Below are positions 5,184 through 60,938 of a stretch of 64,000 bases of DNA, piece by piece. Numbering within the stretch: the first letter of the stretch is position 1; each line of letters begins with the position of its first letter. The position numbers and the translations under genes were made by a program. The notes under the pieces were generated by a model. That model was not told where the DNA came from. It searched no databases and saw nothing but the letters and a program-made list of their open reading frames with translations. The DNA comes from Stegostoma tigrinum (lineage: Eukaryota), in contig NC_081362.1 in the NCBI RefSeq assembly GCF_030684315.1, positions 10,596,589 through 10,660,588 on the forward strand, written 5' to 3'.

Positions 5184-6698
5184 TGTGAAAGGTTCGTGCC
5201 AGTCAACTTGTAAAGGAACTGCAATATCACCTCTGCAATCTGTAGGAGTGAGCAAAAATCCCTGTCATTTAGAATACTGGACTAAAACCCCTGGATTTTT
5301 AACAGAACTTTTAAAACAAAAAGAAAAGCAGCTGGGCAATGCTCTGGAAAGCACAATCACGGGGCTGGCTGTCTGGAACCATGCTTCAGTTAGAAATCTT
5401 ATTCATGCCTTCGCCCCAAAAGAACAATGAATCAGACCTAAGGTAACAACTTCAGACATCTTGGAGATACTAGGAACTGCTGCTGCTGGAGAATCTGAGA
5501 TAACAAGGTGTGGAGCTGGATGAACACGGCAGGCCAGGCAGCATCAGAGGAGCAGGAAAGCTGACGTTTCGGAAGAAGGGTCCAGACCTGAAACGTCAGC
5601 TTTCCTGCTCCTCTGATGCTGCCTGGCCTGCTGTGTTCATCCAGCTCCACACTGTTACCTCAGACATCTTGGACTCTTCACAGGTACCAACACATTCAAC
5701 TTTAATTAATATTCATTCACAGAAATACCGGACATCCCACTTAACCAAAACACATTTATACCTACTCTAAACTATCAGGAGGCCAATTCAGCACAAAGGG
5801 AACAACAGAAACACAACGGTTAAGACAGATTTGTGAGATGATATGGAGCACACAGTCTGTATAACTGCTGGCCCTGATCTGGGAGAGAGAGAATGAGAGA
5901 GAAAGGGCCATCCGGTCAGCTACCAACTGAAGAGGGATTCCAGCCAGCTACTTTTCCCAAGAACTGTCTGTACAGCTATCCCCCTGAAACCTACCAAAAC
6001 AGGGCTGTTCTGTACCAGGGGAACCAACGGCAACGAACCACAACAAGCAGATCTGACGACCGATGACCTCCAAAAGCCACTGACATGACTGACAAGGCCT
6101 CAGACACAGCCTGAGGTGAAAACCAGCTCAAAAGAACACACCACAAAGTAAGAAAACCCAAGTTGTCTCACCAGACTGAACATCATCCAAAGTCTTCAAT
6201 GAAGCACTGGCTACAGCAAGTGGAAACAGGTAGCTGTAGTTCACAATCATGTTAATTCCCAGTGGTGAGCCTACTTCCTCAAGACCCAAAAGTATCCAAC
6301 CGAGCTAGCAGAGAGGGAAAGGTGGGTTGGTGACAGTGCAGGGAACCCCCGAGATGTCTGTGTTTGAAACTATTGTTTATCTCTAATAGTAATTAGCCTG
6401 TGTTAAGTTAATAACTGAACATGTCAGTTTCACTATTCTGAATTTGTCTTTGTAACTCTTGTATTTTTATTCATCTTTGTTTTATTTCCCTGTTTGTTAC
6501 TTTTGTCTTTTTTTATTTCTGGTGATGTACTCACCTTTACATTTAATAAACGCAGAGATTCTTTGTCCTGAAACACCTGCCCACTGCCTTCTTAGTTCAC
6601 ATTCTTTAATTGAGTCCAGTGTCAGAAACAGAGATCTGTGGGTGATTCGAACCACCTAAAAATCAGTAGATTACTGATTGCAAACCAGATTCCCTACA
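5184..6698 (+). mobile_element. Possible solo LTR, interrupted by a PLE foldback
   Basis: TG..CA ends (tgtgaaagg..ccctaca), TATA-like tataac ~5860, T-rich tract and AATAAA ~6545; TSD not convincing. Confidence 0.4.
5466..5659. mobile_element. Foldback PLE pLTR insertion, family A
   Basis: Inverted ~90 bp arms; exact 14-bp TSD tcagacatcttgga at 5452-5465 and 5660-5673. Confidence 0.9.
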
Positions 6699-6869
6699 AA
6701 TCCAAGGAAAATAAGCTGCAAAAAGTTAATGAGGTGGAAATTTAAAAAGTTAAATTTGGAGTATAGTTTCTCTGAACATGAGTCTCCGTAACAAATTATG
6801 TTGGAAAACAGGCTGAAATTTTGTTTTGCTATTTATTAATATCTCTTTAAACAGTCTTCTATATTGCTT

Positions 6870-6956
6870 AGAAGGGTCTAGACCCAAAACGTCAGCTTTC
6901 CTGCTCCTCTGAAGCTGCTGGCCTGCTATGTTCATCCAGCTCTACATCTTGTTATC
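6870..6956 (+). mobile_element. Solo PLE pLTR fragment, family A, no tail
   Basis: gaagggtctagacccaaaacgtcagc..ttcatccagctctacatcttgttat. Confidence 0.8.
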
Positions 6957-7143
6957 TTCTGTATCACTTGCCTTGTCTTTTTCCTTCTTTGCACAACAGA
7001 CATACGTTAACAAGGTGGCTTGAGGGTTTTCCACCTCATTGGGATGGAGGGGGAAGAGTGTGTATTGTGTTATGATCCCAGCTGATAAGTCAGATCCCAG
7101 AACGAAACGTGGCTCAATAGATCCTTCTTTTATTAGTTGTCTC

Positions 7144-7590
7144 AGTTAGTTAGTGAAACTTGTTCACATGAGGTGGAAAATGCCCTTTACCGATAGAGTA
7201 TATGTTTATTGCAGAGAAGAGAAAGAAAAAGTTAGTTAGTTAGTGAAACTTGTTCACATGAGGTGGAAAATGCCCTTTACCAATAGAGTATATGTTTATT
7301 GCAGAGAAGAGAAAGAAAAAGTTAGTTAGTTAGTGAAACTTGTTCACATGAGGTGGAAAATGCCCTTTACCAATAGAGTATATGTTTATTGCAGAGAAGA
7401 GAAAGAAAAAGTTAGTTAGTTAGTGAAACTTGTTCACATGAGGTGGAAAATGCCCTTTACTAATAGAGTATATGTTTATTGCAGAGAAGAGAAAGAAAAA
7501 GTTAGTTAGTTAGTGAAACTTGTTCACATGAGGTGGAAAATGCCCTTTACCAATAGAGTATATGTTTATTGCAGAGAAGAGAAAGAAAAA
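7144..7590. repeat. Tandem array, 5 x 90 bp
   Basis: Unit gttagttagttagtgaaacttgttcacatgagg..gagaaagaaaaa; apart from the start of copy 1, copies differ only at unit positions 51-52 (cg, ca, ca, ta, ca). Confidence 0.97.
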
Positions 7591-15628: not shown

Positions 15629-15924
15629 GAGAAAACAAGAATGAGCCAGCAGCTGCAGAAAGCCAAGAATGTATGAGATGAATACAGGCTTTTCCTCTCT
15701 TAGAGAAGCACATGAGATTTCAGGCTGATGTCAATAATGGAGCACTGGGGGTATTTCTGGCTGTCAACATCCACCCATTCTGCTCCTTCCAAGTGTTGCA
15801 ATACAGTTGACTATTAGAAGAAGAAAATAGATTGGCTGCCAAGAATATCACAGTCCCCTGCATTGGTTCCAGTGGTCAAAGACAAAACTAATGTTGATCC
15901 AAATAATTTCCTCTTCACATATAA

Positions 15925-16132
15925 TTTCCTCCCACAGTCCAAAGGTGTGCAGTTTAGGTAGATTGGCCATGTTAAATTGCCCATAGTGTCCAGGGATGTG
16001 TAAGTTAGGTAGTTTGACCATAGGTAATGCAGGTTACAGGGTCAGGGGTTGGTCTGGATGGGTGCTCTTTGGAGAGTCAGTGTGACCTGATGGGCCGAAT
16101 GGTCTGTTCCACCATAGGGATTCTATTGTTCT
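15925..16132 (+). mobile_element. V-SINE, 5'-truncated
   Basis: tttcctcccacagtccaaaggtgtgcag..gggccgaatggtctgttcc. Confidence 0.8.
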
Positions 16133-25700: not shown

Positions 25701-25912
25701 TGCCATACTCAAATAGCTGGAATGCATGCATCACATAACTGCATATCTATTTGCAGATTCTTATCTTAGGTCTGGCAGTAAGATACCTTGTTGGATCAAC
25801 CACTACTGAGCGACCAAAGGAGATCTGGAAAGTGGAAAAGTTCTCTCTAGGTCTGCTTCTTGTCTAGTTCCTGCAACTCACACTGTTCTATTCAGAGAAC
25901 ACGATATTTTAT

Positions 25913-26047
25913 AAAAGCCAAAAGAGCCGCGGACGCTATAAATCAGAAACAAAAACAGAAATTCCTGGTAAAGCTCAGCTAGTCTGGCAGCATCAGTGGT
26001 GTGAATTCAGAGTTAACATTTTGGGTTGAGCAATCCTCCCCCAGAAG
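25913..26047 (-). mobile_element. PLE pLTR with tail, family B
   Basis: aaaagccaaaagagccgcggacgctataaatcagaaacaaaaacagaaattcctgg.. matches 58757-58890. Confidence 0.8.
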
Positions 26048-26048
26048 T

Positions 26049-26256
26049 AAGATAACAAAGTGTGAAGCTGGATGAATACAGCAGGCCAAGCAGCATTTTA
26101 GGAGCACAAAAGCTGACGTTTCGGGCCTAGAACCTTAATCAGAAAAGGGGGATGGGGAGATTTTGTGCTCCTAAGATGCTTCTTGGCCTGCTGTGTTCAT
26201 CCAGCATCACACTTTGTTATCTCGGATTCTCCAGCATCCACAGTTCCCATTATCTC
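26049..26256. mobile_element. Foldback PLE pLTR insertion, family A
   Basis: Inverted arms; 15-bp TSD tcctcccccagaagt / tccttccccagaagt (26034-26048, 26257-26271; 1 mismatch). Confidence 0.88.
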
Positions 26257-26759
26257 TCCTTCCCCAGAAGTGTTTTTAAAAATTCTCCCAACAAAAAAAG
26301 AAACCTAACGATTTGTAATGGACAGTAAGTGGAGGATTGATATTGTTTAGCAGAGCTAATGACATAGGATAAACCAACTTGTGAAATCAAGCTTTCTTCT
26401 AAACCAACTTTTGTGAGTTGTCAATAAGTCATCCCAGATTATAAATTCCACAGCAACCGGAAAATCAAGACAAAATTTGAAACTTCATTGTTAAATTACC
26501 CCAAATCTATTGAAGTGGGGTTGAAACAGTCTATAATTCAAGAAGGGGTGAGCAGTTGGTACCAAAATTTGAAGGAATTCAGCAATAATTGAGCCCTAAT
26601 ATTCCTCAATCCAATATAAATATGCAGCTTTCCAATTAAACCACTAAAGTGTCCAATTTGCCTGACTGACTACCATTCAGGACAACAGTGATTAACAACA
26701 GTGTTTGTCATTCATGGAAAAATAACTATTTACTGCACACAAACGTACTACTCAACAAG

Positions 26760-30138: not shown

Positions 30139-30454
30139 CTACACAAGGCTGTCAGCTGACAAGTAATACATTTGAAAGAAGTGCACTATAAATACATGTT
30201 TTCACTCAACATGTAAAGTCTCAAAAAACTGCTGCAGAACTTGTCAGTGGAATGCATGGGGCTGGTCTTACATCTGTTATATACCAGCACCTGTGCTCAA
30301 TATGTGATATGTGACAATTATAAATCAAATCAAATCAAACATGTCCATGGGAGTCAGTAACAGCTGGAATGATCTTGTTGAGCCAGGCTTGATGCAAAAA
30401 GGTGCCTTACAAGCTATAAGCAAATGTCTCTTTATAAAACAAGAGTGTCAGAAA

Positions 30455-32180: not shown

Positions 32181-32352
32181 GACACGAAAACGTCTGCTCC
32201 TTACATTAAATCTACACCCCCGGGCATTGATTTCTCCACCAAGGGAAAAATATTTCTTCTCTGCCTTGCCTATGCCCCTCGTAATTTTATACATCACAAT
32301 CAGGTTCATCGCATAATCTTCTCTGCTCCCAGGAAAACAACCCCAATGTATC

Positions 32353-32567
32353 TAAGATAGTAGGAACTGCAGATGCTGGAGAATCTGAGATAACAAGGTG
32401 TAGAGCTGGATGAACACAGCAGGCCAAGCAGCATCATAGGTGCAGAAAGGCTGATGTTTCGGGCCTAGACCCTTCTTCTCATGAATGGTTTAGGCCCGAA
32501 ACATCAGCCTTCTTGCTCCTATGATGCTGCTTGGCTGCTGTGTTCATCCATCTCTACACCTCGTTAT
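32353..32567. mobile_element. Foldback PLE pLTR insertion, family A
   Basis: Inverted arms; exact 11-bp TSD cccaatgtatc at 32342-32352 and 32568-32578. Confidence 0.9.
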
Positions 32568-33180
32568 CCCAATGTATCATATCTGTCTTCATAAGAAAAA
32601 GTCTCCAGCCCAGGCAACATCCTGGTAAATCTCTTCTGCATGACTACAGAGACTTGTGGACTATGATGATAATTACGGCAGAATTCCTGGTTTCAGGCAT
32701 GCAACCTGGAAGACTGAATGTCTCTTGCGCCAGCTGGGTACTCTTTCAGCGGTGTTCACAATGCAGAAGCCAGAACACTAACACAGAATCTATTTTGGAT
32801 AAATAGGCAGCTGTGAGTTTAATTTGATCTCCATCCTATATATCATCTCAGTGCTGCTAAATTACCAATAAAATCTGACTGTTGGCAGCTTTGAGTTTTC
32901 ATTACAGACAACCAAAAATACACAGAGTGCAAATCATATGCATTTGTGGCATCATGTCAAACATCCAAACCTAAATTGTTACTGTCATTACAGTGTAGAA
33001 ATATCATTGCAGACCAGAAATCCTCAAGTGATTAGTGTCCTGATTCTTGTGGGTGGTTGTTTAGCTGTGCAATTTCATTTAAACAATAATAAATCAGATT
33101 AGACTTACTGTGTTAATTACAGTGAGTAACCAACAATAAGTCAGCAGGGTAATATTAATTCTGAATGACACACCATAAAA

Positions 33181-33500: not shown

Positions 33501-33749
33501 GAGTTGGGATTCCCACTAGTTTGGCAAACAGGTTTTGGTGAACTGAAATCTAATTTTTGGCTGGTCATACTTTAGCAAATGTGAATATAAGTGAAAATCC
33601 CTGAAAATTTTACTTGGATTTTCCCGCTGCCTGCTGCTGACTTCAGAAGAAAGTGCCTGCAGAGATGCAGCAATCTCTTGGTTTGTATTTCCCCATTTCC
33701 CTGGTTCAGTCTGAACCTCAAAGCCAAATCAAAGAGGTCATACATTTTT

Positions 33750-33985
33750 CTCAAGAAGGGTCCAGATCCAAAACGTCAGCTTTCCTGCTCGGCCTGCTGC
33801 ATTCATCCAGCTCCACCTCTTATTATCTCATATCAATGCCCCACCTGTTTGTAACAGGTGGGAATAACTCCACCTGGCTGTGTCTTTATGGAAAATCAAT
33901 TGCTGGAATAGCTCCGGAGGTCTGGCAGCATCTGTGGAGAGAAAGCAAAACTAATGCTTTGGGTCCAGTGACCTTTTCTCAGAAT
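33750..33985. mobile_element. Two PLE pLTR fragments (family A, +, 33750-33830; family B, -, 33895-33985)
   Basis: aagaagggtccagatccaaaacgtcagc.. and ttgctggaatagctc..gggtccagtgacc..tcagaa. Confidence 0.7.
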
Positions 33986-36523
33986 TCAAGACCCATGCTC
34001 AAAACTTCATAGAAGGTCTGTCCAAGGTCACCTGGCAGCACTGGCTCTCCTTCCTTTCAAAGGTGCCAGTTAGACCAACATTGGCCAATTTACAGCCTTT
34101 CAAGGAACTTGTAAGTTCATGTGTGTGCCACCCATTTTGCCGCTGCAGTTCTTTCCAACAAAAGGGAAGGGAGGCCTGGATTACTGTCACTCATGGCCCA
34201 TCACTCACCCATTCCCCCCATGTGGTTAAAATCAACCCTGTTTGGAAATGCAATGCGTGATTTAGTGTTGCCATCCTCTTATGGGTTTACCCTGCCCTTA
34301 TGAGTATTTTATTCTGACGTGAAGGTAACGTAAATCTGCAATGTACATCTACCTTAATTCCACTGCAAACGCGATCCTTCAAAACTACTGCTTGTTGAAG
34401 TCATGAACGTGCTTGAATCCTGTAATGGGATTCCCTTTCAACCAACAAGAGTTGTTTGAATTACAGAACATGATCTTTGTTTGAAGAAACAACTTTGTGT
34501 AGCAAATGCATTAGATTGTAACTTACCCTGCCAGGTCATCCAAATTCGGTTAAATATTAAAACTGTGCCAACACTGATGTCTAACCATTACCAAGCTAAT
34601 ATTGTTTACTCCACTGACCAATGGTGTGCATAAATATGAGCTGTACATCAATACAGGCATATAGAAGTGATTTATCCAAATAATTCATAGCTTGTCAGGT
34701 AGTTTTGTGTGAAGCACATCTGGCCAGGATTGATTAACAGGAAATCTAGTCTAAACAGATACTTTGGAATTTGCTTGAAGCCTTGAGGAACGCAGGTTAC
34801 TTCATACCGATCCTTCCCGTAGGATTTCAGAATGATGAAGTAAAACCGATGATGGATCGAGCCTGACTTGAAACTGCAACGTCACTCCGTCACTGTTACT
34901 CGGTCAACGTGCTGAAAGTCCCATCGTCGGTTTAACTTTATCCCTCGGACTGCAGTGATGCAGGAAGTTGACTCACTACCATCTTCTCCAGGGCAATTAG
35001 GGCTGGGTAATAAACACTGGCCCAGCCAACGATACTCACATCCCATGACCACATTTTTAAAAATAATATTGTGCCGTGGATGGAACAGATTAAGTGGAAT
35101 GTTTGCCTCAATTCTATGGGTTCTTTAAGTTTTTACATTGTATATCTCATCCTTTTTGGCAATTGTTCTTTCCATTCCCGACATTCCCAGCTAAGAGGAC
35201 GCTTTCCACTGCAATCCCTTCTTACCTTGCAGTGAAATGTCAAACTGCTGTTCACCTCGATATATCTGGGAAATTCCTGACTTTATGAGAAAGTATATAG
35301 GTTATGGGGAAATAATAACAACACCTCAATGGTCTACAAGTGTACAGCACATTGCTTTGCAATAGCATCTTGTTTGTTAACACAACAAAGTATTAAATAT
35401 TTAACTAACTCGTGATTGTGTAGTTTGAACCCATGCATCTTTGCCACACGTTATGCTGTGTGTACCATGAAACGTTCCTTTGCAGAATTTTACTTCCTGG
35501 CCAGTGGCACCACCTGCTGTTAGTGTCTGCTGCTCTGAGATCCTGCCTGTTCTTTTTAATTCAAAGATTTGAACAGCAACAACAGCCTCATTCATAAATG
35601 GCTAACATGTCTGTACTGCATATTAGGGATGCCCTCATCCCATGAATGAATAAAAACATTCTCGAGCAAACAGACCCTTAATGTTGAGACACTGAACAAA
35701 TTTAAGGAGGAGACAGACACATTTGTAATTAGTAACAGGTTAGAGGGTAAAGGGGTAACAAACTGTGGAGTTGGATGAACACAGCAGGCCAAGCAGCGTC
35801 TCAGAGGGTAAAGGGGAGTGGGCAAGGAAGTAGAGTTGAGGCCTACATGAGATCAGCCATGATCATTATGAATGGTGCAGCAGGCTTGAGGGGGCTGAAT
35901 AGCCTACTCCTGCCCCCAGCTCTTCTGTTCCTATGTAATTGGCCACATGCCACTGGATTCACTGACCTGAAGCAGCCAGGCCTCCTTAAATTGAACTTCC
36001 CTCATCCTGCTGAAAATATTAAATCCATCCCGTCAGACAGTGCCACTAAACAGGGATTTTATTTCTCATTATTCATTGCTGAGATGTGGGAATCGCTGGC
36101 TCAGCCAGCATTGATTGCACATTCCCTAATAGCCAAGAAAGCTACTACGAGTCAAAAAACATTGCTGTGGATCTGGGTCGCCTTGAAAGAGGGACTTTAA
36201 CAGTTTATTATCCATGCAAATCAAACACCATGCATTTAAGGTTCCGCTATCAGGGTTGGTGCTCAAGCCATAAAAGCACATGAAAAGAAACATGAAGGAG
36301 GGTGGTTGTCAGTGAGTTTTCTGCCACACAAAACCCACAAGTGATTGCAATGAAGAAGACTTAGGAGAGACAGTGTATTACGGCTGTCCCTGAAAATGGC
36401 AACTCCCCCTACCTGAACAAATGCGCTGGGCTGAATTTCATGGGCAGCTTTTCAGGAACAGGGTAATAAAATGTGAGGCTGGATGAACACAGCAGGCCAA
36501 GCAGCATCTCAGGAGCACAAATG

Positions 36524-36555
36524 CTGACGTTTCGGGCCTAGACCCTTCATCAGAG
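36524..36555 (-). ncRNA. Minimal type I hammerhead ribozyme motif
   Basis: Reverse complement CTGATGA-A-GGGT-ctag-GCCC-GAAA-CGTC. Confidence 0.7.
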
Positions 36556-37397
36556 AGGGGGATGGGGAGAGGGAACTGGAATAAATAGGGAGAGAGGGGG
36601 AGGCGGATCGAAGATGGAGAGTAAAGAAGATAGGTGGAGAGAGTATAGGTGGGGAGGTAGGGAGGGGATAGGTCAGTCCAGGGAAGACGGACAGGTCAAG
36701 GAGGTGGGATGAGGTTAGTAGGTAGCTGGGGGTGCGGCTTGGGGTGGGAGGAAGGGATGGGTGAGAGGAAGAACCGGTTAGGGAGGCAGAGACAGGTTGG
36801 ACTGGCTTTGGGATGCAGTGGGTGGGGGGGAAGAGCTGGGCTGGTTGTGTGGTGCAGTGGGGGGAGGGGACGAACTGGGCTGGTTTAGGGATGCAGTAGG
36901 GGAAGGGGAGATTTTGAAACTGGTGAAGTCCACATTGATACCATTAGGCTGCAGGGTTCCCAGGCGGAATATGAGTTGCTGTATTCCGCCTGGGAACCCT
37001 GCAGCCTAATGGTATCAATGTGGACTTCACCAGTTTCAAAATCTCCCCTTCCCCTACTGCATCCCTAAACCAGCCCAGTTCGTCCCCTCCCCCCACTGCA
37101 CCACACAACCAGCCCAGCTCTTCCCCCCCACCCACTGCATCCCAAAGCCAGTCCAACCTGTCTCTGCCTCCCTAACCGGTTCTTCCTCTCACCCATCCCT
37201 TCCTCCCACCCCAAGCCGCACCCCCATCTACCTATTAACCTCATCCCACCTCCTTGACCTGTCCGTCTTCCCTGGGCTGACCTATCCCCTCCCTACCTCC
37301 CCACCTATACTCTCTCCACCTATTTTCTTTACTCTCCATCTTCGGTCCGCCTCCCCCTCTCTCCCTATTTATTCCAGTTCCCTCTCCCCATCCCCCT

Positions 37398-37429
37398 CTC
37401 TGATGAAGGGTCTAGGCCCGAAACGTCAG
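37398..37429 (+). ncRNA. Minimal type I hammerhead ribozyme motif
   Basis: CTGATGA (37400-37406), stem II GGGT/GCCC, GAAA (37420-37423), CGTC. Confidence 0.7.
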
Positions 37430-38319
37430 CTTTTGTGCTCCTGAGATGCTGCTTGGCCTGCTGTGTTCATCCAGCCTCACATTTTATTATCTTGGTATTC
37501 TCCAGCATCTGCAGTTCCCATTATCTCTGATACTACTTCAGGAACAGGACTGTTTTTGTGAGTCCTGACCCCATTCTCCAAAACAGCAGCAGACTGAGGT
37601 CCCGTCCTTCTGTGATGTTGACATCAAGGTGACAGCACATGTCATGTCCACAGAGAGAATGTTACCCTTTGAGGATTTTACTAGGATTTGAGAGTCAATG
37701 GACGTCACTTGCTGACATTGAAACTGCACAAAACAAACACTTTGAGAAGCAAACACTGAGCATGAGTACAAGCTAGAAAACAGTATCACAGAACACACAC
37801 CGAACATTTTGGGTCTGACAGTCTTAAAATATTTAGATGTATCCAGCCACATTTAAGAACAATATGAATTAACTGGCACAGAATTACATACTCCTGACTT
37901 ACAGAGGCAGGTGTGCAGGAATCATCCCCCCTCCCAATCATTAGTTTGAATATGTAGGATATAAGACTATAACAGGACCAAGTAAGATTGCCTTTCCCTT
38001 TCGACTAGAATGGAACGGCTGGATTGTCTGCTATCACATTGCAAGAATAGTTACTTGGAATTAGTGCTGGAAGGTAAGAATTAGAACTAGAATTAGGCTT
38101 TATTGTCACGTGTACTCAAGTACAGGGATACAGGAGTGCAGTGAAAAGTGTACAAAGTCGCCATTCCTGGTGCTATCTTGGGTATAGAGTACCTAGGTAT
38201 AAAATCTTAGGCAAAAAGTAGAAAAACAGGTTAAAAGTTCAACATTACAGTTTTTCTCAGTATGAAGTAGTAAATAAGAAATAACATTTAAAGGTTGTCA
38301 GTATCTAACATAAACCCAT

Positions 38320-38667: not shown

Positions 38668-38699
38668 AGTCTACAGGGCATTAATATTTGATCTGAATA

Positions 38700-39130
38700 T
38701 CACTATTCATATAGTGCCTTTCATAGCCTCAGGTTATCCCAAAGTGCTTCATTGACAATGAAGAGCTGTTCAGAGTATAGTCACTTATGTAATGTGAAGT
38801 TAAAACATACAGGCAGCCAATTTGAACACAGCAAGCACAAAAACAGAAGTTGCTGGAAAAGCTCAGCAGGTCTGGCTGCATCTGTGAAGAAAAAATCAGA
38901 GTTAACATTTTGGGTCTGGTGTTCTGAGGAAGGGTCACCGGACCTGAAACGTTAGCTCTGACATTTTCTTCACAGATGCTGTCAGACCTGCTGAGCTTTT
39001 CCAGCAACTTCTGATTCTGATCCTGACTTACAGTATCCACAGTTCTTTCGATTTTTATTGAACACAGCAAGCTCCCACAAGCAACAATAACATAAATGGT
39101 CAGATAATCAGTTGAGAGACAAGGAATACA
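38700..39130 (-). mobile_element. DeuSINE-like 3' portion, interrupted by a PLE foldback
   Basis: tatagtgcctttca..cccaaagtgcttca..ggcagccaatttg.acacagcaagctcccacaa..cagataatc. Confidence 0.6.
38837..39057. mobile_element. Foldback PLE pLTR insertion, family B
   Basis: Inverted arms; exact 15-bp TSD ttgaacacagcaagc at 38822-38836 and 39058-39072; CTGAGGA-A-GGGTC-accg-GACCT-GAAA-CGTTA at 38924-38954. Confidence 0.9.
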
Positions 39131-39589
39131 AGAATATTTACAGCAGTAATCTAAATCATGGGCTTACTCATCACAATTAGTGCTCTAAAGTTTGTGATTT
39201 CTGAATTTCACAGTGTGTGTTGTAAACTGAATCTGCAACACTGACATCATGGGAACATTTGTATTTACTTAACTCATGGCAGGAAGGGCGCAATTGCACC
39301 ATCTGCTGGAAATACACAACATTGCTGTCAACCGTGAACAGATGGCACTGCCTAAGTTTTGTGATGGTTTTGAGAGGTTTCTATATAACAGATGTTAATA
39401 ATGTATTACAAGTTTTGCATATGGTGCACGCTGCCCACAATTATCACACTTTTCCTACAACAACAAAACACTACTACGTGCACATGTAGCCACCCTCACA
39501 ATGCCCTTCACTTCTCTGTTGAGCTTCACAGGGTCTCTCCAATCCAGGTATAACATTGGCATTTTGTTACATCTCGAATTGATTCTTCA

Positions 39590-40630
39590 GCACCGTGACC
39601 CTCTTTTGGCTTCTTATCCCAAATAACCCTTGATCCCCTTAGTAATCAGGAACCTATCTCTGCCTTAAAGCTTGGCCTCCACATCCTTCTGGAGCAATGA
39701 CTACTCCAGATTAACCACACTCTGGATGCAGAAATTCCTCATTTCAGTTCTAAAGGGTCATTCCATCATTCTGAGGCTGTACCCTTGGATGATAGTCTCT
39801 CTTATTAGTGAAAGTATCTTCTCCACATTCACGCTATCCAGGCCTCTCAGTATTTTGTAAATTTCAGTCAGAACCCCCGTCATCCTTGTAAACTCCATTA
39901 GGTACAGACCCAGAATCCTCAACTGCTCCTCATATTGCAAGCCCGTCATCTCCAGGTTCATTCTTGTGAACCACCTCTGAACCCCTTCAGATGCCAGAAC
40001 ATCCTTCCTTCGATACCGTGCCCAAAACTGCTCACATTATTCCAAATGTTCCAAAAAATTCCAGAGCCTTACACAGCCTTAAAGTGCTCTCTGATGAAGG
40101 GTCTAGGCCTGAAACGTCAGCTTTTGTGCTCCTGAGATGCTGCTTGGCCTGCTGTGTTCATCCAGCCTCACATTTTATTATCTTGGAATTCTCCAGCATC
40201 TGCAGTTCCCATTATCTCTCAAAGTACATCTCTGCTCTTGTATCCTAACCCTGTTGAAATGAACGCTAACATTGCATTTGCCTTCCTAACTGCCAAATGA
40301 ACCTGCATAAGTAACCTCAAGAAAATCCTGTACTAAGGCTCTCAAGTCCCTTCATACTTCAGATTTCTGAAGCCTTTCCCCACTTAGAAAACAGTCTATG
40401 TCTCTATTCTTCCTACCAAAGTGCATAACCCCTCATGCTTTCCTATATTGTATTCCATCTGCCACTTCGTTGCCCACTTTCCTAGCTGTCCAAGTCCTTC
40501 TGTAGCCTCCCACTTCCTCAACACTACCTCTCCCTCCACCTAGCTTTCTGTCATCTGCAAACTTAGCAACAATGCCCTCAGTTCCTTCGATCAGATTGTT
40601 AATGGATAACGTGAATAGTTATGGTCCCAA
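39590..40630 (-). mobile_element. CR1 RT to 3' fragment, with a PLE pLTR inserted at 40087-40220
   Basis: GLQYEEQLRILGLY..EIYKILRGLD; reverse-strand KFADD at ~40550. Confidence 0.85.
40087..40220 (+). mobile_element. Solo PLE pLTR with tail and intact hammerhead core, family A
   Basis: CTGATGA at 40091 to GAAACGTC at 40111-40118; near-identical to 37396-37528. Confidence 0.9.
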
Positions 40631-40889
40631 CGTTGATACCTCTAACCCACACTAACATTGTAACTTTAATTCCTTTTCATGTCATTTCGTGTTTGTGGTA
40701 TCTTCAACTGTGATTTTGTGGACAGTACGAAAGGCAAGTCAAGCACCAGGCCCAATATCTTACGGGAGTGAATCGAAAAGCAAAGATGTTACATTAAAAA
40801 GAGACTGTGGTGGAGTAGGTACAGGTCACTTGGGGTTTTATTCCCCCTGAGAATAGCAAACAGACGGTGGCAGGGAGAGAAATATCAAA

Positions 40890-41145
40890 GATATAGAAAA
40901 ACATGGAAAACACAGAAAATGGGAGCAGGAGTAGGCCCTTTGGAGTCTGCTCCATCATTCATTATGATCATGGCTGATCATCCAAATCTATAGCTTGTTC
41001 CTGCTCTCCCCACATATTCTTTGATCCCTTTAGCCCCGAGTGCTATATCCAACTCCTTCTTGAAATCACACAATGCTTTGGTCTCAGAACTGCTGTCACT
41101 GGTAGCAAATTCTAAAGGCTCACACCCTCTGGGTGAAGAAATTTA
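40890..41145 (-). mobile_element. CR1 3' end
   Basis: Similar to 52165-52480 and 57430-57720. Confidence 0.75.
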
Positions 41146-42194
41146 TCCAGGCAGGTTGTCACCAGGGGAGATAGTTATCCTTCCGCGGCACTTGAGAATT
41201 AGAAATTCCTTCCGGGCAGGAAGACCATCTTTCCACTGACAATGAGGGCTCTTTAATGGTCAATTTACTCAAGCGGCCTTTAATGCCTCCACCCTCATTA
41301 ACTCTGTACCCCTATCAGGCAAGCAGAGTGGCAGCACTCCCAAACAATGATTTGGATTGGTTGGCCTGCCATGTGGAGGGAAGTAACCTATCGATCTGCA
41401 AAGACACGGATTAGAAGAAAGGCAAGGTATTGTAGCTGCTGAAAGCCACTTGCCTGACCTTACTGCAAAACCTCCTGACTCTCTTCTCCCCTTGACCCTG
41501 AACTCCTTGTCTCCACCCCTCTCCCTCCACACTCCCCCAAAAGTCACATGCCTTACCCTGCTGCTCTAGGACTTTAGACATCAATGTGCCACCAGCAGCC
41601 TCACCCCTGAGGTTACACTGATCCTCACAGTGGATCCCAGTCTCTGACTGTCCTGCAGCTTCAAGTCCAAGGTCGGTTGCGGGCGGGGGGGGGAGGATCA
41701 TTGCCGTCATCCACCTAAAAACCCAACAGGCTCATCAAAATCATGGCTGGGCAGAGTAGATGGGGAGGAGCAGCTCCTGCTCATTAAAAAAAAGACCAAC
41801 AGACACAAATTTACAGTGACATGCAAACAAGATGAGGTTCATGTGAGAACTAACTATACACTTCGTGAAAAAGTTTAAGTTCTGGAATGCACTGCCCAAA
41901 AATGCGGTGGAGACAGATTCGATCGCGGCATTCAAGGGGGCACTGGACGCTTATGCAGTGATGTGGGGAAGAGGCAGAAGATTAGGACAAGGCAATAGAA
42001 CCAGTGCAGGCATGATGGACTGAATGGCTCCTTTTGTGCCACAGCAATTCTGTAATTCCAGGTGACCACCTAAGGGGTTGACAGGCCCTAAACTCAAAGT
42101 GGAGTCGAGAATAATGACATCAGCCATGATCACATTGAGGGAGCTCGATGGGCTGAATAACCATCTGCTCCGCCATCCCATGGTCCCTCCTGTT

Positions 42195-42710
42195 ACCCCA
42201 TTCCACAATGACCTGCAATCCTACGGTTGCCTTTAGCACGGCAAACTCTTCCCCCAAGGCTTCACAAGAGTGCTTTATCAAATGAAATTTGACACTGTAA
42301 GCTGTGCAAAGGAGACGTAAGGATAGATGTGCCAAATTTTGGTCAAAGAGATAGTTTCTAAAGGGGCATCTGAAAGAGGAGGGAGAGGTTTACTCAGAAC
42401 CAAGGCAGCTGAGGCATAGCCACCAATAGGGGAGCAATCAGCATTGGTGCAAGAGGCCTAATTTGGAGAAGCTTAGATCTTGCGAGGAGGGTTGGAGGGC
42501 AGCAGTTACTAACAGAAATAGGGTGAAATAAGGGCACAGATGGATTTGACAACAAAGATAATCATTTTAAACTCGCAGTGTTGCCAATGTGAGCTTAGAG
42601 TGAAAACAGGAATGAGTGAGAATATCTGCAGCAGAGTTTTGGATGAGCTAAAGTTTACAAAGACTGGAAGATGGGAGGTGGCTAGGACAGCAGTGGCACA
42701 GTTCCAATGA
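42195..42710 (-). mobile_element. L2-like LINE 3' fragment
   Basis: Reverse L2-type end (cccaaggcttcaca..ttggtcaaagag..ggcagctgaggca..gcagcagagttttggatgagct). Confidence 0.55.
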
Positions 42711-43360
42711 AAACAGCTTTACATTGTTTCCCCTTGACCACCTGGGCGGAATATGCATAATATTAGCATCCTCCTAATGCTACAGGACACTGATTTGCAT
42801 TATTAGCCCAACACAATAATTTTAATTCTGCTACAACCTAATTCCTATCAGGTCTGCCTAGTTGCAATTGGCTCTGATGTACATGAAGAGCCCAGTATGA
42901 GAGCTTGCTGTTTCTTAATAAACTTGGACTTTTAACCCAGTTCCCACAGCTTGTCAAATACCCCATATCCTGTTTGGTTAGTGAAATAAGAAGACAGGAT
43001 CCTATTTAGAAACATCTGTTTCAATTAAATCAAAATAGTTTAGTTGTATTCCCTTGTATTAGAGAGGAAATGAACAGCAGTTAAAGTGGATTATGCATAT
43101 CTGAGATTAAAGAAACCACTGCAATTACTGAGCAGAAAAGTCATAATTGTATCCAAGATTGAACCAAAATGCAAGACATTTAAATAGGCTTCAAAATGGG
43201 GCACAACCATAATTGAATAATTGCCAACATTTTGAACTTACATCCTCGCTTTGATTTTTATTCCAAATGTAATTATTTTCCCTCCAAACTTCTTAGCTTT
43301 CACAAAGCTATAGGCTTTTGCCAACGTACCTTTCCATATCACCAGATATCCTCCAGTACC

Positions 43361-43570
43361 AAAGTATGGAGCTGGATGAACACTGCAGGCCAAGCAGCAT
43401 CTTAGGAGCAAAAAAGCTGACATTTCAGGCCTAGACCCATTCTGATGAAGGGTCTAGGCCCGAAACATCAGCTTTTGTGCTCCTAAGATGCTGCCTGGCC
43501 AGCTGTGTTCATCCAGCCCCATACTTTATTATCTCGAATTCTCCAGCATCTGCAGTTCCCATTATCTCTC
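43361..43570. mobile_element. Foldback PLE pLTR insertion, family A
   Basis: Inverted arms; 13-bp TSD atcctccagtacc / atcctccggtacc (43348-43360, 43571-43583); CTGATGA..GAAACATC at 43442-43469. Confidence 0.9.
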
Positions 43571-43789
43571 ATCCTCCGGTACCTCACTTGTTTCCAGGTG
43601 CCAAGAAACCTGATGCTGTGGCAGTAGCATCTTATTGAACCCGGACACATCTAACATCAGCGAACAGGTGTCCCGTGCAACTGGGGTCTATGAGGTGTCT
43701 CAGCAAATCATTTCATAAGTTCTGTGAAATCCTTACTTGAACACTGCTTTGTATCTGTGAAGATGGGGACCGGGATCTGAATACTGAAT

Positions 43790-44052
43790 AATCTGTGTGG
43801 AGTTTGCACGTTATCTCTGTGTCTGTGTGCGTTTCTGCCAGTTTCCTCTCATAGTCCCGCAGGTTAGGTGGACTAGCTATGCTAAGTTGCCCATAGTATC
43901 CAGGGATGTACAAACAACATGCACAATCCATGGGAAATACAGGGTTACAGGGATAGGGTAGGAGGGGTGAGTCTGGGTGGGATGCTGTTTAGAGGGTCAA
44001 TGTGAATTTGATGGGCCAAATGGTCTGCTTCTACTCTGTAGGGATTCTATTT
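43790..44052 (+). mobile_element. V-SINE, head missing
   Basis: tctgtgtggagtttgcacg..gggccaaatggtctgctt..gggattctat. Confidence 0.8.
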
Positions 44053-48465: not shown

Positions 48466-48504
48466 TGGCTGCTGGTCATGTGGTGTCATCATGGTCCTTG
48501 GCCC

Positions 48505-48630
48505 ATTAGCAAAGGTTTCAACCCAAAACATTGACTTCCCTGCTGCTAGGATGCTGTCTGACCTGCTGTGCTTTTCCAGCCTCACGTTTATTGACTCTAG
48601 CTTCCAGCATCTGCAGTTCTTACAGTCTCC
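48505..48630 (+). mobile_element. PLE pLTR variant (family C)
   Basis: cccaaaacattgact..gatgctgtctgacctgctgtgcttttccagc..ccagcatctgcagtt. Confidence 0.7.
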
Positions 48631-49402: not shown

Positions 49403-52148
49403 AACATAGAACATTACAGCACAGTACAGGCCCTTCGGTCCTCGATGTTGTGCCGACCTGTCATACCAATTTGAAGCCCAACTAACCTACACTATTCCAT
49501 GTACGTCCATATGCTTATCCAATGACGACTTAAATGTACCTAAAGTTGGCGAATCTACTACCGTTGCAGGCAAAGCGTTCCATACCCATACTACTCTGAG
49601 TAAAGAAACCACCTCTGACATCTGTCCTATATCTTTCACCCCTCAATTTAAAGCTATGCCCCCTCATGCTCACCATCACTATCCTAGGAAAAAGGCTCTC
49701 CCTATCCACTCTATCTAACCCTCTGATTATTTTACATGTTTCAATTAAGTCACCTCTCAACCTTCTTCTCTCTAACAAAAACTGCCTCAAGTCCCTCAGC
49801 CTTTCCTCGTAAGACCTTCCCTCCATACCAGGCAACATCCTAGTAAATCTCCTCTGCACCCCTTCCAAAGCTTCCACATCCTTCTTATAATGCGGTGACC
49901 AGAATTGTACACAATACTCCAAGTGCGGCCGCACCAGAGTTTTGTACAGCTGCAGCATAACTTCTTGGTTCCGGAACTCGATCCCTCTATTAACAAAAGC
50001 TAAAACACTGTACGCCTTCTTAACAGCCCTGTCAACCTGGGTGGCAACTTTCAAGGATCTGTGTACATGTACATGGATCTCTCTGCTCATCTACACTACT
50101 AAGAATCTTACCATTAGCCCAGTACTTTGCCTTCTGGTTACTCCTACCAAAGTGCATCACCTCACACTTGTCTGCATTAAACTCCATTTGCCACTTCTCA
50201 GACCAGCTCTGCAGCTTATCTATGTCTCTCTGCAACCAACAGCATCCTTCGTCACTATCCACAACTCCACCGACCTTAGTGTCGTCTGCAAATTTACTAA
50301 CCCATCCTTCTACGCCCTTATCTAGGTCATTTATAAAAATGACAAACAGCAGTGGACCCAACACCGACCCTTGCAACACACCACTAGTAACTGGTCTCCA
50401 GGATGAACATTTCCCATCAACTACCACCCTCTGTCTTCTTTCGGCAAGCCAATTTCCAATCTAAACTGCTATATCTCCCACAATTCCATTCCTCCGCATT
50501 TTGTACAATAGCCTACTGTGGGGAACCTTATCAAACGCCTTGCTGAAATCCATATACACCACATCAACCGGTTTACTCTCATCTACTTGTTTGGTCACCT
50601 TCTCAAAGAATTCAATAAGGTTTGTGAGCACGACCTTCCCTTCACAAAACCATGCTGACTATCCCTAATCATTATATTCTTTTCTAGATGATTATAAATC
50701 CTATCCCTTATAACCTTTTCCAACACTTTACCAACAACTGAGGTAAGGCTCACTGGTCTATAATTACCAGGGCTGTCTCTACTCCTCTTCTTGAACAGGG
50801 GAACCACATTTGCTAGCCTCCAGTCATCTAGCACAATTCCTGTAGACAATGACGAGTTAAAGATCAATGCCAAAGGCTCTGCAATCTCCTCCCTGGCTTC
50901 CCAGAGGATCCTAGGATAAATCCCATCCGGCCTAGGGGACTTACCTATCTTCACCCTCTGCAGGATTTCTAATACCTCTTCCTTGTGAACCTCAATCCCA
51001 CCTAGTCTAGTAGCCTGTATCTCAGTATTCTCCTCAACAACATTGTCGTTTTCTAGAGCGAATACTGTTGAAAAATATTCATTTAGTGCTTCCCCTAGCT
51101 CCTCTGACTCCACACACAACTTCCCACGACTATCCTTGATTGGCCCTAATCTTACTTTCATCATTCTTTTATTCCTTAAATACCTATAGAAAGCCTTAGG
51201 GTTTACCCTGATCCTATCCGCCAACAACTTCCCATGTCTCCTCTTGGCTCTTCTGAGCTCTCTCTTTAAGTCTTTCCTGGCTACCTCTCAAGTGCCTTAA
51301 CTGAGCCTTCATATCTCATCCTAACATAAGCCTTCTTCCTCCTCTTGACCAGAGATTCCAACTCCTTCGTAAACCACGGCTCCAGCGCTCTACAGCTTCC
51401 TCCCTGCCTGACAGGTACATACTTATTTAGGACACACAGGAGCTTTTCCTTGAATAAGCTCCACATTTCTAATGTGCCCATCCCCTGCAGTTTCTTTCCC
51501 CATCCTATGCTCCCTAAATCTTGCCTAATCTCATCGTAATTGCCTTTTCCCCAGCTATAACTCTTGCCCAGTGGTATACACATATCCCTTTCCATCACTA
51601 AAGTAAACATAACAGAATTGTGATCGCTATCACCAAAGTGCTCACCTACTTCCAAATCTATCACCTGGAGGGACTCATTATCCAGTACCAAATCTAATGT
51701 GGCTTTGCCCCTTGTTGGCCTATCTCCATACTGTGTCAGGAAGCCCTCCTGCACCCACTGGACAAAAACTGACCCATCTATAGTATTTGATCTATAGTGT
51801 TCCCAGTCAATATTTGGAAAGTTGGAGTCACCCATGACAACTACCCTGTCTCTCTCACTCCTATCGAGAATCATCTTTGCTATCCTTTCCTCTACACCTC
51901 TGGAACTATTCGGAGGCCTATAGAAAACTCCCAACAGTGTGACCTCTCCTTTCCTGTTTCTAACCTCAGCCCATACTACCTCAGTTGACGAGTCCCCAAA
52001 CATCCTTTCTGCAACTGTAATACTGTCCTTGACCAACAATGCCACACCTCCCCCTCTTTTACCATCTTCTCTGTTCTTACTGAAACATCTAAATCTCGGA
52101 ACCTGCAACAACCATTTCTGTCCCTGCTCTATCCATGTCTCCGAAATA
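49403..52148 (-). mobile_element. Young CR1 LINE, most of ORF2 (APE + RT) and 3' UTR; 5'-truncated, frameshifted into four ORFs
   Basis: ORFs 51281-52168 (GGGVALLVK, GVFYRPP, GDSDH), 50595-51227 (NYRPVSLTS), 50032-50427 (QGSVLGP, KFADDTK), 49530-50090; (gttctat)n tail; candidate TSD gacttag. Confidence 0.97.
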
Positions 52149-52162
52149 GACTTAGGCAGTTG

Positions 52163-52482
52163 AAACATAGAAACATAGAAAGTAGGTACAGGAGTAGGCC
52201 ATTTGACCGTTCAAGCCTGTTCCACCATTCAATATGATCATGGCTGATCCAGATGTATATCTATCCCACTCTCACTTTCGCTCCATATCCCTTGATCCCT
52301 TTAGCCACAAGGGCCACATCCAGCTTCCTCTTGAACATATCTAACATAGTGGCCCCAACTGCTTTCTGTGGTAAAGAATTCCACAGGTTCACAACTCTCT
52401 GAGGGAAGAAATTGTTCCTAATCTCAGTCCTGAATGGCTTACCCCTTATTCTTAGACTGTCACCCCTAGTTCTGGACTTGCC
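52163..52482 (-). mobile_element. CR1 3' end, different subfamily
   Basis: (gaaacata)n tail in reverse, followed by a CR1 UTR and ORF end. Confidence 0.8.
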
Positions 52483-52499: not shown

Positions 52500-52843
52500 T
52501 AATAGTCAAAGAATCCCTACAGTGTGGAAGCAAGCCATTTGACCATCAAGTCCACACTGACTCTCTAAAGGGTCCTCCCAGACCATCCCAATAACCCTGC
52601 ATTTCCCATGGCTAACCCACCTAGCCTGCACACCCCTGGACACTATGGGCTAGTTGGCTTGGCCAATTCACCTAATTTCTACATTTTTGGATTGTGAGAA
52701 GAAATCAGAGCACCCAGAGGAAACAAATGCAGACGTGGGGAGAACATGCAAAAACTCCACACAGACAGTCACTTGAGGATGGATTAAATGTGGGTCTCTG
52801 ATACTGTGAGGCAGCAGTGCTAACTACTGAGCCACCATGCCAC
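52500..52843 (-). mobile_element. V-SINE (HE1-like)
   Basis: Reverse match to the other copies. Confidence 0.85.
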
Positions 52844-52864
52844 CACAATTTTGACAATTGGTTG

Positions 52865-58014: not shown

Positions 58015-58360
58015 GGTTCAACAAGGTAGATGCAGTTAGACTATTTCCTCTTGTGAAAGAATCTCAGGCCAGAGGGCAGAATATCAGAGTAAGGGATCAC
58101 CCATTTAAGACTGATATTAGGAAGAATTTCTTCTCTCAACAGATGTCTAGGGAGTTCTTTGTCATAGAGGGCTGTCAGGGCTAGCTCACAAAGTATATTC
58201 AAAGCTGAGACTGTCAGATATTTAGTCAGTTTAGGGAATCAAGGATTATGGGGAAAAGGCAGGAAAGTAGAGTTGAGATTATTGGATCAGCCATCATCTC
58301 ATTGATCGGTAGAGCGGGCTTAATGTGCCAAATGGTTACTTCTGCTTCCTATGGTTTCCC
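58015..58360 (+). mobile_element. CR1 3' end
   Basis: ..ccatttaagactgatattaggaagaatttcttctctca..gatcagccatcatctcattga. Confidence 0.75.
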
Positions 58361-58489
58361 TATGACATCCAAGCATTTCTCCATGAAATATAAGATTTGT
58401 ACTTCAAACTGTTGGGTATTTCTTTCAACATGTTGGGTGTCAACATCATTCATGCCATCTGCAAGGAGCTGACCGCTAGTTTTTTAAAA

Positions 58490-59455
58490 AATTCTTTTGG
58501 GGGACATGGGCATCACTGGCTGGGCTGGCATTTATTATCCATCTCTAGTTGCCCTCAAGAAGGTGGTGGTGAGCTGCCTTCTTGAACCACTGCAGTCCAC
58601 CTGCTGCAGGTGGACCCACAATGCCGTGAGGGAGGGAATTCCAGGATTTTGACCCAGCGACAGTGAAGGAACAACGATATATTTGCAAGTCAGGATGGTG
58701 AGTGTCTTGGAGGGGAGCTAGCAGGTGGTGGTGTTACTATGTGATTGCTGCCCTAATAAAAACCGAAAGAACTGCGAATGCTGTTTAGGAACAAAAACAA
58801 ATTTGCTGGAAAAGGTCAGCAGGTCTGGCAGCATCTGTGAAGGAAAAAACAGAGTTAATGTTTCGGGTCCGGTGACCTTCCCTCAGAACTGATGGTGAAT
58901 TTCTGCAGTGCATCTTGTAAATAGTATACGCTGCTGCTACTGAGCATTGATGATAGAGGGAGTGGGTGTCATTTCAATCAAGTGGGCTGCTTTGTCCTAG
59001 GTGGCATCAAGCTTTTCCAATGTTGTTGGAGCTATATTCATCCAGGTAAGTGGGGAGCATTTCATCATACTCCAACTTGTGCCTTGTAGATGGTGGACAG
59101 GCTTTGAGGAGTCAGAAAGTGAGTTATTCACTGCAGTATTTATAGCTTATGACCTGCTCTTGCAGTCACTGGCAAGTCCATTTGAGTTTCTGGTCAATGG
59201 TAAGCCCCAGGATGTTGATAGTGAAGTAATTCAGTGATGGTAACGCCATTGAATGTAAAGTGACAGTGGTTAGAGTGTCTCTTATTGGACACGGTCATTG
59301 CCTGGCACTTGTGTGATGTGACTGTTACTTGCCACTTGTCAGCCCAATATTGTCCAGGTCTTGTTGCATTTGAACATGAACTGCTTCAGTATCTGAGGAG
59401 TTGTGAATAGCAATGAACAGTGTGCAATCATCAGCAAGAAATCCAACTTATCACC
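58490..59455 (-). mobile_element. 3' part of the LINE sharing its tail with SINE-B, interrupted by a family B pLTR at 58757-58890
   Basis: Tail matches SINE-B; minus strand encodes AVHVQMQQDLDNI..KWQVTV..KCQAMT and WSMMKCSPLTWM. Confidence 0.8.
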
Positions 59456-60715
59456 TTCATACCAAGGCTAAACAACAAGAGAAAGAAGTGAAACCCTTAC
59501 TGGGGGTTACGCTAGCAACCTTTCACACTATGGACCAGAGAAGAAACCAATAAATTCTTTAACGTCACAGCAAAATCCTTACGTACATTATCCCAACCCA
59601 AAATCTTTGCACTCTTCTCACTTAACCTCTCCAATCACAACTTTCATACAGTGCTTACATTCAGGTATTGTCCCCTTACATATCTCAGCTTGCATTGATA
59701 CAAGTATTTATTTTAAATTTGTGAACATTACACTAAGTTAGGAGCCAGACAAATTAGTTCAGATTTCTTCTCTCAGTTGGGGATCCTCTTCAAGGTTGTG
59801 GGAGATCACTTCTGTTGTCCTCTGGCAGAACACTTAGAGAAAGGCAAGGGTGAAGTGCTACCACTGCCGGCCTGGCTCTGATATTCTTTACAGTGGAAGT
59901 TGAGGATATAGCTTGTTTTGCATCGTAAACTATGAGTTCAACTGCTACGGGAGGCAGTATCAGGGGCAAGGAGAGAAACCACCTGCCCCAGTACTGCTCT
60001 TGGCTTAGAAACCTGGATCCATTCCCACCTCCCAGCCCGCTCCAACACATCAGCCTTGACCCCCAACCCAAGCACAGCAAGCCCCCTAGAGCAATATCCT
60101 GGTAATTGGACCTCAGATGATATCTATCCACTGTGAATGTACATGTTAGAATAGCCTTTACTGTCACATGCGCTCGAATGAGTGCACTAAAAAGTTTGCG
60201 ATGTCACCTGTCAGCGCCATCTTACGTACCGGGTACCCAGGTGCAGATATTTTAAGTGTTGTTACAGGTTTGAAATAATGAAACAATAAAGTCTAGCATG
60301 GTAATACAGAGCTTTTAAAAAAAAGTGCAGAAAGAGAATACAAATTTATCTTTAAAGTACTCAAGTTATAGTCCTTTCTCACTGAGTCCATGCCCACCAA
60401 GCTTCAGAGCACAAGGCCTCACTGCCTCAATGCTTTGGCATCACCCCCGGCTACACCTCCCCCCCATCTCCGTCTGTACTGCTCCTGCTCCCGCCCCCAA
60501 CCCCGGCCACAGCACGTCTCCAGCACTGGGGTAGTCTCGGACTCCGTTCTCCATTCCCTCCAGGTAGGGTACATTAAGAAGTTAAAAGTTCGGGGGGGAG
60601 TTGGGTCGTGAGGAAACAAAATTGCAGCAAGAGGGAAAAGGAGGGAAAAAGGAGCTGGCAAGCAGAGGAGCTCTAGCTGGAGTGCCTTACTCTGCCACCA
60701 TCGACAAAAATAGTA

Positions 60716-60938
60716 CAGATGCAGGAAATCAGAAACAAAAAAAGAACTGGCATGCAAGTCTCAGCTGATCTGGCAACATTTGTAGAGGGGAATCAGAGTG
60801 AATGTTTCAAGTCCAGTGACCCTTCTTCAGAGCTCACTTCTGAAGAAGGGTCACCAGATCTGAAACGTTAACTCTGATTTCTCTCCGCAGATGCTGCCAG
60901 GCCTGCTGAGATTTTCCAGCAATTTCTGTTTTTGTCTG
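60716..60938. mobile_element. Head-to-head pair of PLE pLTRs, family B
   Basis: ..gacccttcttcagagctcacttctgaagaagggtc..; right arm CTGAAGA..GAAACGTTA at 60840-60870; no clear TSD. Confidence 0.8.

Follow-up and report, generated by a model that had tools for sequence, protein, structure and literature searches.

Head-to-Head Ends of Penelope-like Elements in a Shark Genome Join One Tailed and One Tail-Less Arm

This analysis concerns a 64,000-nucleotide stretch of the genome of Stegostoma tigrinum (NCBI RefSeq assembly GCF_030684315.1, contig NC_081362.1, forward-strand positions 10,596,589 to 10,660,588), hereafter called the window and numbered from its first letter. Scattered over this window are copies of the 3' ends of Penelope-like elements (PLEs), most of which belong to two families (A and B) of pseudo-long terminal repeats (pLTRs). 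Some copies stand alone (solos), and others are joined in head-to-head pairs, which we call foldbacks. In every foldback one arm carries the terminal tail of the element, and the other arm stops short of this tail.

Results

Self-BLAST and inspection of the window sequence recovered seven foldbacks, all of them where the original prediction, made from the sequence alone, had placed them (Table 1). Each consists of two outward-pointing copies of one element end, with arms that are mostly 75–130 nt long on both sides. Among the best 25 of 28 inverted pairs (by length), these seven are the only ones made of PLE ends. Since they account for seven of the 17 insertions in the window, foldbacks are a common form. 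All of them are dead insertions of PLEs, endonuclease-bearing (EN+) in family A and putatively so in family B. In the youngest (36464, labelled as in Table 1) both arms reach into the end of the endonuclease coding sequence. To look beyond the window, we used contigs of four runs mapped on 36972–37900. Two of these runs, X14 and X15, carry the species label of the window, and contigs of both contain the right junction of foldback 36464. Contig depth was not taken as copy number.

Table 1. Foldbacks, solo copies and associated motifs in the window (TSD, target-site duplication; strands of foldback arms in brackets)
Feature	Span	Strand	Parts and remarks	TSD
Foldback 5466, family A	5452..5673		TSD 5452–5465; tailed arm 5466–5572 (-); tail-less arm 5573–5659 (+); TSD 5660–5673	14 bp exact (17 bp with 1 mismatch)
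Foldback 26049, family A	26034..26271		TSD 26034–26048; tail-less arm 26049–26160 (-); tailed arm 26161–26256 (+); TSD 26257–26271	15 bp, 1 mismatch
Foldback 32353, family A	32342..32578		TSD 32342–32352; tailed arm 32353–32478 (-); tail-less arm 32476–32568 (+); TSD 32568–32578	11 bp
Foldback 36464, family A, youngest	36451..37548		TSD 36451–36462; tail-less arm 36464–36981 (-) including a 10-nt loop; tailed arm 36982–37533 (+); 3 extra nt; TSD 37537–37548	12 bp
Foldback 38837, family B	38822..39072		TSD 38822–38836; tail-less arm 38837–38921 (-); tailed arm 38922–39057 (+); TSD 39058–39072	15 bp
Foldback 43361, family A	43348..43583		TSD 43348–43360; tail-less arm 43361–43438 (-); 1 extra nt; tailed arm 43440–43570 (+); TSD 43571–43583	13 bp, 1 mismatch
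Foldback 60716, family B, oldest	60705..60935		arm with decayed tail 60705–60834 (-); tail-less arm 60835–60935 (+)	none
Family-A tail of the youngest arm (36464)	37493..37533	+	between no-tail end (TTATCT, 37492) and tail end (37525–37533)	
Minimal hammerhead-like motif in the pLTR	37400..37427	+	CTGATGA, A, 5-bp stem II, GAAA, CGTC; predicted cut after 37427; from descriptor scan	
Solo, family A, tailed	2157..3483	-	long, 5'-truncated, broken open reading frame (reverse transcriptase thumb, linker, GIY-YIG endonuclease)	
Solo, family B, tail-less	4271–4372	+		
Solo, family A, tail-less	6870..6958	+		degenerate (10 bp, 1 mismatch, scripted)
Solo, family B, tailed	25911–26048	-		
Solo, family A, tail-less	33749..33828	+		
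Solo, family B, tail-less	33892–33984	-		
Solo 35756, family-A stub, tail-less	35742..35816	-		14 bp, exact
Solo 40087, family A, tailed	40087..40219	+	starts 4 nt before the hammerhead core	
Solo 48541, third pLTR subfamily, tailed	48500–48625		resembles both A and B	
Solo, family B, tailed	58755..58892	-	family-B reference	

For mapping of the ends, 14 arms and nine solos were placed on a common scale relative to the first C of the hammerhead core, with offsets corrected by eye; solo 48541, whose 5' end did not map, was omitted. The 3' ends of these 23 copies are bimodal, a pattern that the prediction had counted as support for its own reading: 12 lie at +85 to +96, 11 at +125 to +133, and none between. 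One tailed arm and one tail-less arm are present in all seven foldbacks. This asymmetry had been claimed for six, and it extends to 60716, where the tail is decayed and ~6 nt short. If each arm picked its end independently, at the ratio of five tailed to five tail-less solos (48541 counted), seven mixed pairs out of seven would arise with p = 0.0078. The distance between the outer ends of the two arms is 30–44 nt (partly read by eye); ~35–47 nt had first been given. Loose contig ends peak at the no-tail site 37492 (1,025 records in X14 and 808 in X15), and the tail-end coordinates 37525–37533 appear in rows of contig joints. Matches between primer and template at the outer ends, judged by eye, are mostly 0–2 nt.

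A single TSD encloses both arms together in six of the seven foldbacks; for 60716 the flanks were searched for a TSD and none was found. The six duplications score 10–15. By comparison, none of 1,488 random position pairs scored 10 or more, and none of 42 mismatched pairs of real flanks (shuffled control) scored above 7. These controls bear out the claim of six TSDs of 11–15 bp in excess of chance. Only one of the ten solos (35756) has an exact long TSD. Foldback 26049 is inserted at the 5' edge of the family-B solo 25911–26048. The TSD of this foldback (26034–26048) is exactly the first 15 nt of that solo (hammerhead edge, -4 to +10), which means that the cut made by a family-A element fell on the 5' boundary of a family-B copy.

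Comparison of the arms points to a common source within each foldback. Among the 120 possible matchings of the five left and five right family-A arms, the true pairing is the closest (59 shared columns; same result with CpG masked). The arms of 36464 differ at six of 508 sites, four of which were found in the contig table; in every case one arm has the minority allele. Position 37147 is G in both arms, although 97% of the X14 family depth there has A. The subfamily pairing together with this shared G indicates that a single source element served as template for both. The similarity of the arms may also owe something to conversion between them or to the dominance of one source at any given time.

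The arms are not simply nested. The tail-less arm extends further in the 5' direction by 16 (5466), 48 (26049) and 10 nt (36464), whereas the tail is found on its partner. The tailed arm outreaches the other in both directions in 38837 and 43361, and in 32353 and 60716 the inner ends are nearly even. Hence, in three of the seven foldbacks (5466, 26049, 36464) neither arm is contained in the other, and neither can have been copied from the other, which argues against a simple fold-back of one cDNA. We found no support for a tail-less cDNA that leads on a common RNA template and for that reason extends further 5' (five of seven, p = 0.23). Microhomology at the centres, read by eye, amounts to 1, 0, 3, 1, 1, 0 and 0 nt across the seven elements.

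All seven central junctions differ, in line with the prediction, but the randomness that it attributed to them holds only in part, since the inner ends are clustered. Fifteen of the 23 mapped copies (eight of 14 arms and seven of nine solos) stop inside 15 nt at the 5' edge of the hammerhead (-6 to +8 on the scale above). Stops occur in this interval at ~0.07 per nt, compared to 0.003 before and 0.002 after it; the interval was picked after seeing the data, which inflates the p-value. A matching loose-end peak lies before 37399 in X14 (894 records, with unrelated letters upstream). A shared upstream exon at this edge is unsupported, because the loose letters before 37399 agree only at 0.37. 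A single G often stands directly before the preferred 5' edge (joints 37437/37430 to 37396/37398; also 40086, before solo 40087). It may have been templated, or it may derive from the copying of an RNA cap.

The hammerhead descriptor matched eight family-A and family-B sites and two unrelated sites with one mismatch. A scan of 36400–44000 with Rfam returned 14 sub-threshold matches, mostly to microRNA hairpin models, and none to a hammerhead model. Minimal PLE hammerheads of metazoans have a CUGANGA core, an unpaired base before stem II and GAAA; they lack a stable helix III and have a palindromic CG (Cervera and de la Pena 2014, PMC4209133). The motif in the window has the core features of this class, but most copies begin at its 5' edge and not at the predicted cut. 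We therefore rejected the cut as the usual 5' end of the template: at most one of the 23 copies starts near it (the right arm of 26049, +28 to +31). Since the preferred edge lies ~30 nt upstream of the predicted cut, it is more likely an RNA 5' end or a stop of reverse transcriptase (RT) than a cleavage product.

The identity of family A follows from solo 2157–3483, in which the pLTR runs on into a broken open reading frame (ORF) with RT thumb, linker and VVY..YIGET. This copy ties the family-A pLTR to an EN+ PLE, although its match to GIY-YIG in Pfam, at E = 0.0079, is weak and below the cutoff. A protein search gave 27 relatives among 59 candidates, the best from whale shark (P0001, 91%) and zebra shark (87%); relatives at 45–48% identity, 682–894 amino acids long, carry PF00078. 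These homologues place the host among the cartilaginous fishes. Canonical EN+ PLEs are marked by a CCHH motif with two cysteines between GIY and YIG and, in Neptune and Nematis, by a CX2-5CxxC linker, according to the pertinent passages of PMC8557442. P0001 shows YIDD upstream, CX4CxxC and the internal cysteine pair. The CCHH motif is present as two cysteines inside the VVY..YIG stretch with EH and NH downstream. The linker of 2157–3483 retains the CxxC half, and its first Cys falls at a frameshift. Family A further has a pLTR with a predicted hammerhead motif (descriptor match), an optional 30–40 bp 3' tail, an inverted 5'-truncated copy and a TSD. These features indicate that family A is a canonical EN+ PLE, probably of Neptune or Nematis type; the window contains no RT core. 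Family B can be tentatively assigned to the PLEs by its predicted hammerhead motif, its tail and a weak similarity to family A (72% over 83 nt, E = 5.6e-5). A PDB search returned no matches. Just past the end of the PLE coding region, at 37044–37155, lies a 39-bp tandem repeat of 2.9 copies.

The contig tables contain several further joints. Among those listed, the top opposite-strand joints connect the no-tail end (37491/2/5) to the tail end (37525–33). They are probably 3' ends of neighbouring insertions that face each other and were not used as evidence for pairing, as the table may lack joints between two ends of one kind. Another joint links 37495, slightly beyond the no-tail end, to 37428, the base that directly follows the predicted hammerhead cut, at a depth of 545 plus 129 in X14 and 131 in X15. 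If it is a same-strand joint, it could be a tandem produced by a jump to the no-tail start from an RNA end left by the ribozyme; alternatively, it may have been inherited from one master. A same-strand joint from 37529 back by 125 nt to 37405 (11 contigs in X14, two in X15), where a tail end is followed by a hammerhead-edge start, amounts to a partial tandem of minimal size. In organism C, one contig contains the right flank of foldback 36464 (37561–37889) as single-copy sequence with a 29-nt insertion at 37585, and continues for 569 nt, in which no PLE piece is listed. It gives a weak hint of an empty site, with insertion of 36464 after the split. Pattern scans detected no loci in viral contigs and 32 loci in metagenome contigs, none of which had family sequence beyond ~26 nt.

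Discussion

We consider it probable that the foldbacks formed when a single staggered cut left two nicks and reverse transcription was primed from both, at two defined start sites. This is the reading that best fits the observed anatomy, the TSDs, the bimodal ends and the same-subfamily, non-nested arms, and we infer it from such genomic scars. An RT–endonuclease, probably dimeric, would cut the target with a stagger of 11–15 nt, and each 3'-OH would then be extended on element RNA, probably on the same molecule or within the same ribonucleoprotein (RNP). One cDNA would start at the tail-end site and the other ~35 nt upstream. Most cDNAs would end at the hammerhead 5' edge, which would be the 5' end of the RNA or a strong RT stop. 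Both cDNAs would then be joined end to end with little or no homology, and the product filled in. Solo copies would represent events that left only one surviving cDNA.

Much of this scheme has precedents. Inverted pLTRs and 3' extensions are among the known peculiarities of PLEs listed in PMC8969392. The part of Arkhipova 2013 (PMC3846280) that deals with such units describes inverted pLTRs that lie head to head, are flanked by TSDs and carry a tail at one of the pair, and proposes antisense self-priming. The corresponding part of Craig 2021 (PMC8557442) describes an adjacent inverted truncated copy, often with a tail at one end, and attributes this tail to endonuclease-mediated resolution. 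As presented there, these EN+ PLE units share with the foldbacks the head-to-head 5'-truncated copy, the TSD around the unit, the one-ended tail of 30–40 bp and the hammerhead in the pLTR. The foldbacks differ from them by their minimal arms, by TSDs of 11–15 bp compared to 8–10 bp in rotifer, and by an asymmetry that holds in seven of seven cases. The chemistry was examined by in vitro target-primed reverse transcription with PAc (Poseidon, from Anolis carolinensis), which cuts and extends both strands (Frangieh 2024, PMC11167929). This protein, predicted to be a dimer, starts reverse transcription at two internal sites, one at each boundary of the tail, without primer–template homology and without apparent difference between the strands (PMC11167929). 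On our reading the foldbacks would share these features. Our elements belong to another clade (the linker CX4CxxC points to Neptune or Nematis), and their target sites are not AT-rich. The main text of PMC11167929 neither derives foldbacks from two-strand priming nor examines a coupling of the two starts on one target.

A similar idea has been proposed for L1. In the section of Meyer 2010 (PMC2837659) on these structures, twin priming is defined and a two-nick "dual priming" is proposed, so that cDNA is primed at each of the two nicks of a staggered cut and an inverted structure is left between TSDs. As defined there, twin priming copies two different parts of an RNA through internal annealing, and dual priming copies two RNAs at poly(A). 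In contrast, the foldbacks contain the same 3' segment twice and have two fixed starts that are not poly(A). Their arms overlap almost fully and lack poly(A), and the distinction from L1 twin priming that was drawn at the outset was correct. The dual priming of the original prediction gains from the bimodal ends, the single TSD, the subfamily pairing and the three non-nested pairs, but it is largely anticipated: the architecture and the two-site, two-strand chemistry are already in print, the latter for a relative. What the window adds is the coupling in seven of seven foldbacks, together with arms that are not nested and a preferred stop on the 5' side. The strict assignment of one start site to each arm may be new; it is seen in seven elements. 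No count of tail/no-tail pairing was found in the literature searched, which is not proof of its absence.

Several observations weigh against two-nick priming or against its generality. The coupling is limited by a sample of seven from one window. Obligate pairing has no in vitro precedent, since the start sites of PAc do not differ between strands, and PAc belongs to the Poseidon clade whereas the element here is Neptune-like. Family B has no ORF in the window. The template match reaches 5–6 nt at two outer ends (the no-tail end of 5466 and the tail end of 32353). In 36464 the inner ends lie only 10 nt apart (-428, -418) after more than 500 nt, and such near-equal ends call either for a hairpin or for an RNA end common to both arms. 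They are as easily explained by a hairpin or fold-back as by two cDNA run-offs from one RNA end, and later asymmetric deletion at the centre of a palindrome could mimic non-nested arms.

One alternative is a hairpin intermediate, which we judge unlikely. It would arise by antisense self-priming or snap-back of a cDNA and be resolved by the endonuclease with a stagger of ~35 nt, and its centre would be remodelled later. Both the strict asymmetry and the close inner ends of 36464 would follow from it, and both of its steps have been suggested, self-priming on an antisense template in the passages cited from PMC3846280 and resolution as the source of the tail in those from PMC8557442. A hairpin of fixed polarity should, however, leave its loop on one type of arm, and here the tail-less arm has it in five of seven foldbacks (in two of these the difference is just 1 and 4 nt) and the tailed arm in two. 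The loop of the young 36464 continues the tail-less arm. Microhomology at the centres is mostly 0–1 nt, solos exist with either end, and the tail boundaries of PAc map to RT start sites rather than to cuts (PMC11167929). This mixed polarity and the blunt joins favour two separately primed cDNAs. The two ideas can be merged if both nicks prime, one cDNA snaps back, and the copy-back strand anneals to a second, shorter cDNA for sealing through long homology. Non-nested arms could then coexist with close inner ends as in 36464, and snap-back does appear as a term in the part of the R2 insertion literature that we cover. Yet this route demands pairing of the fold where six of seven centres have 0–1 nt, and by itself it leaves the constant difference between the two starts unexplained; we regard it as improbable.

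Miniature inverted-repeat transposable elements (MITEs) and foldback DNA transposons are likewise short, flanked by TSDs and shaped as inverted repeats. The foldbacks depart from MITEs in their unequal ends, variable arm and TSD lengths, unshared junctions and origin from the 3' end of a retroelement. Pre-formed foldbacks that were transcribed and retrotransposed whole could nevertheless have inherited their junctions from masters, as the clustered inner ends (15 of 23) might suggest. Some joints are also far above single-copy depth (37437 to 37398: 304 compared to ~19 in X14, strand orientation not recorded). But all seven junctions differ, the elements carry different subfamily alleles in both arms, and the solos share the clustering at the 5' edge, so that no master is needed to explain it. 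We therefore give this account very little credence, and the earlier statement that these are not one MITE family holds within the window, with seven different junctions and TSDs of 11–15 bp. The simplest objection, two independent insertions side by side or a palindromic assembly artefact, can draw on the abundance of the family (at least 24 copies in 64 kb) and on the fact that one element (26049) lies inside another copy. It is already largely refuted by the single TSD around both arms, by the rank of the subfamily pairing (1 of 120) and by the different ends and private substitutions of the arms, and we hold it to be barely credible.

If two-nick priming is correct, one may go further and speculate that the PLE RNP is an asymmetric dimer in which each RT site is obligately assigned to one start site on a single RNA. 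We offer this extension tentatively and with more doubt than confidence. Were it true, every two-nick event would give one tailed and one tail-less cDNA; most cDNAs would be run-offs resembling strong-stop products, with the transcript 5' end at the hammerhead edge and the start at the 5' pLTR–ORF junction; and inverted pLTR, one-sided tail and short foldbacks would be outcomes of one reaction.

The origin of the inverted repeats and of the one-sided tail is still termed undefined in the relevant passage of PMC8557442, and the 2024 in vitro study left the steps past first-strand initiation unvalidated (PMC11167929). The short foldbacks of this shark are abundant and record both ends of single events. 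Genome-wide analysis of end pairing and loop polarity could therefore separate two-nick priming from a hairpin intermediate. For the PLE class the architecture is an ordinary one, and no host function is suggested.

Other Repeats in the Window

An inverted repeat pair at 61359–61627 (56 nt, 79%, around 157 nt) is unrelated to PLE ends and is possibly an old DNA-transposon derivative. Decayed fragments of ORF2 of long interspersed nuclear elements (LINEs) lie at 49530–52210 (-), with Pfam matches to APE endonuclease and RT, and at 30978–32095 (+); both are presumably CR1/L2-like. A family of short interspersed nuclear elements (SINEs) of ~330 bp, which we take to resemble the shark HE1 SINE, is dispersed over 3835–4171, 4766–5074, 15924–16127, 29859–30141, 33156–33466, 43792–44051 and 52510–52844.

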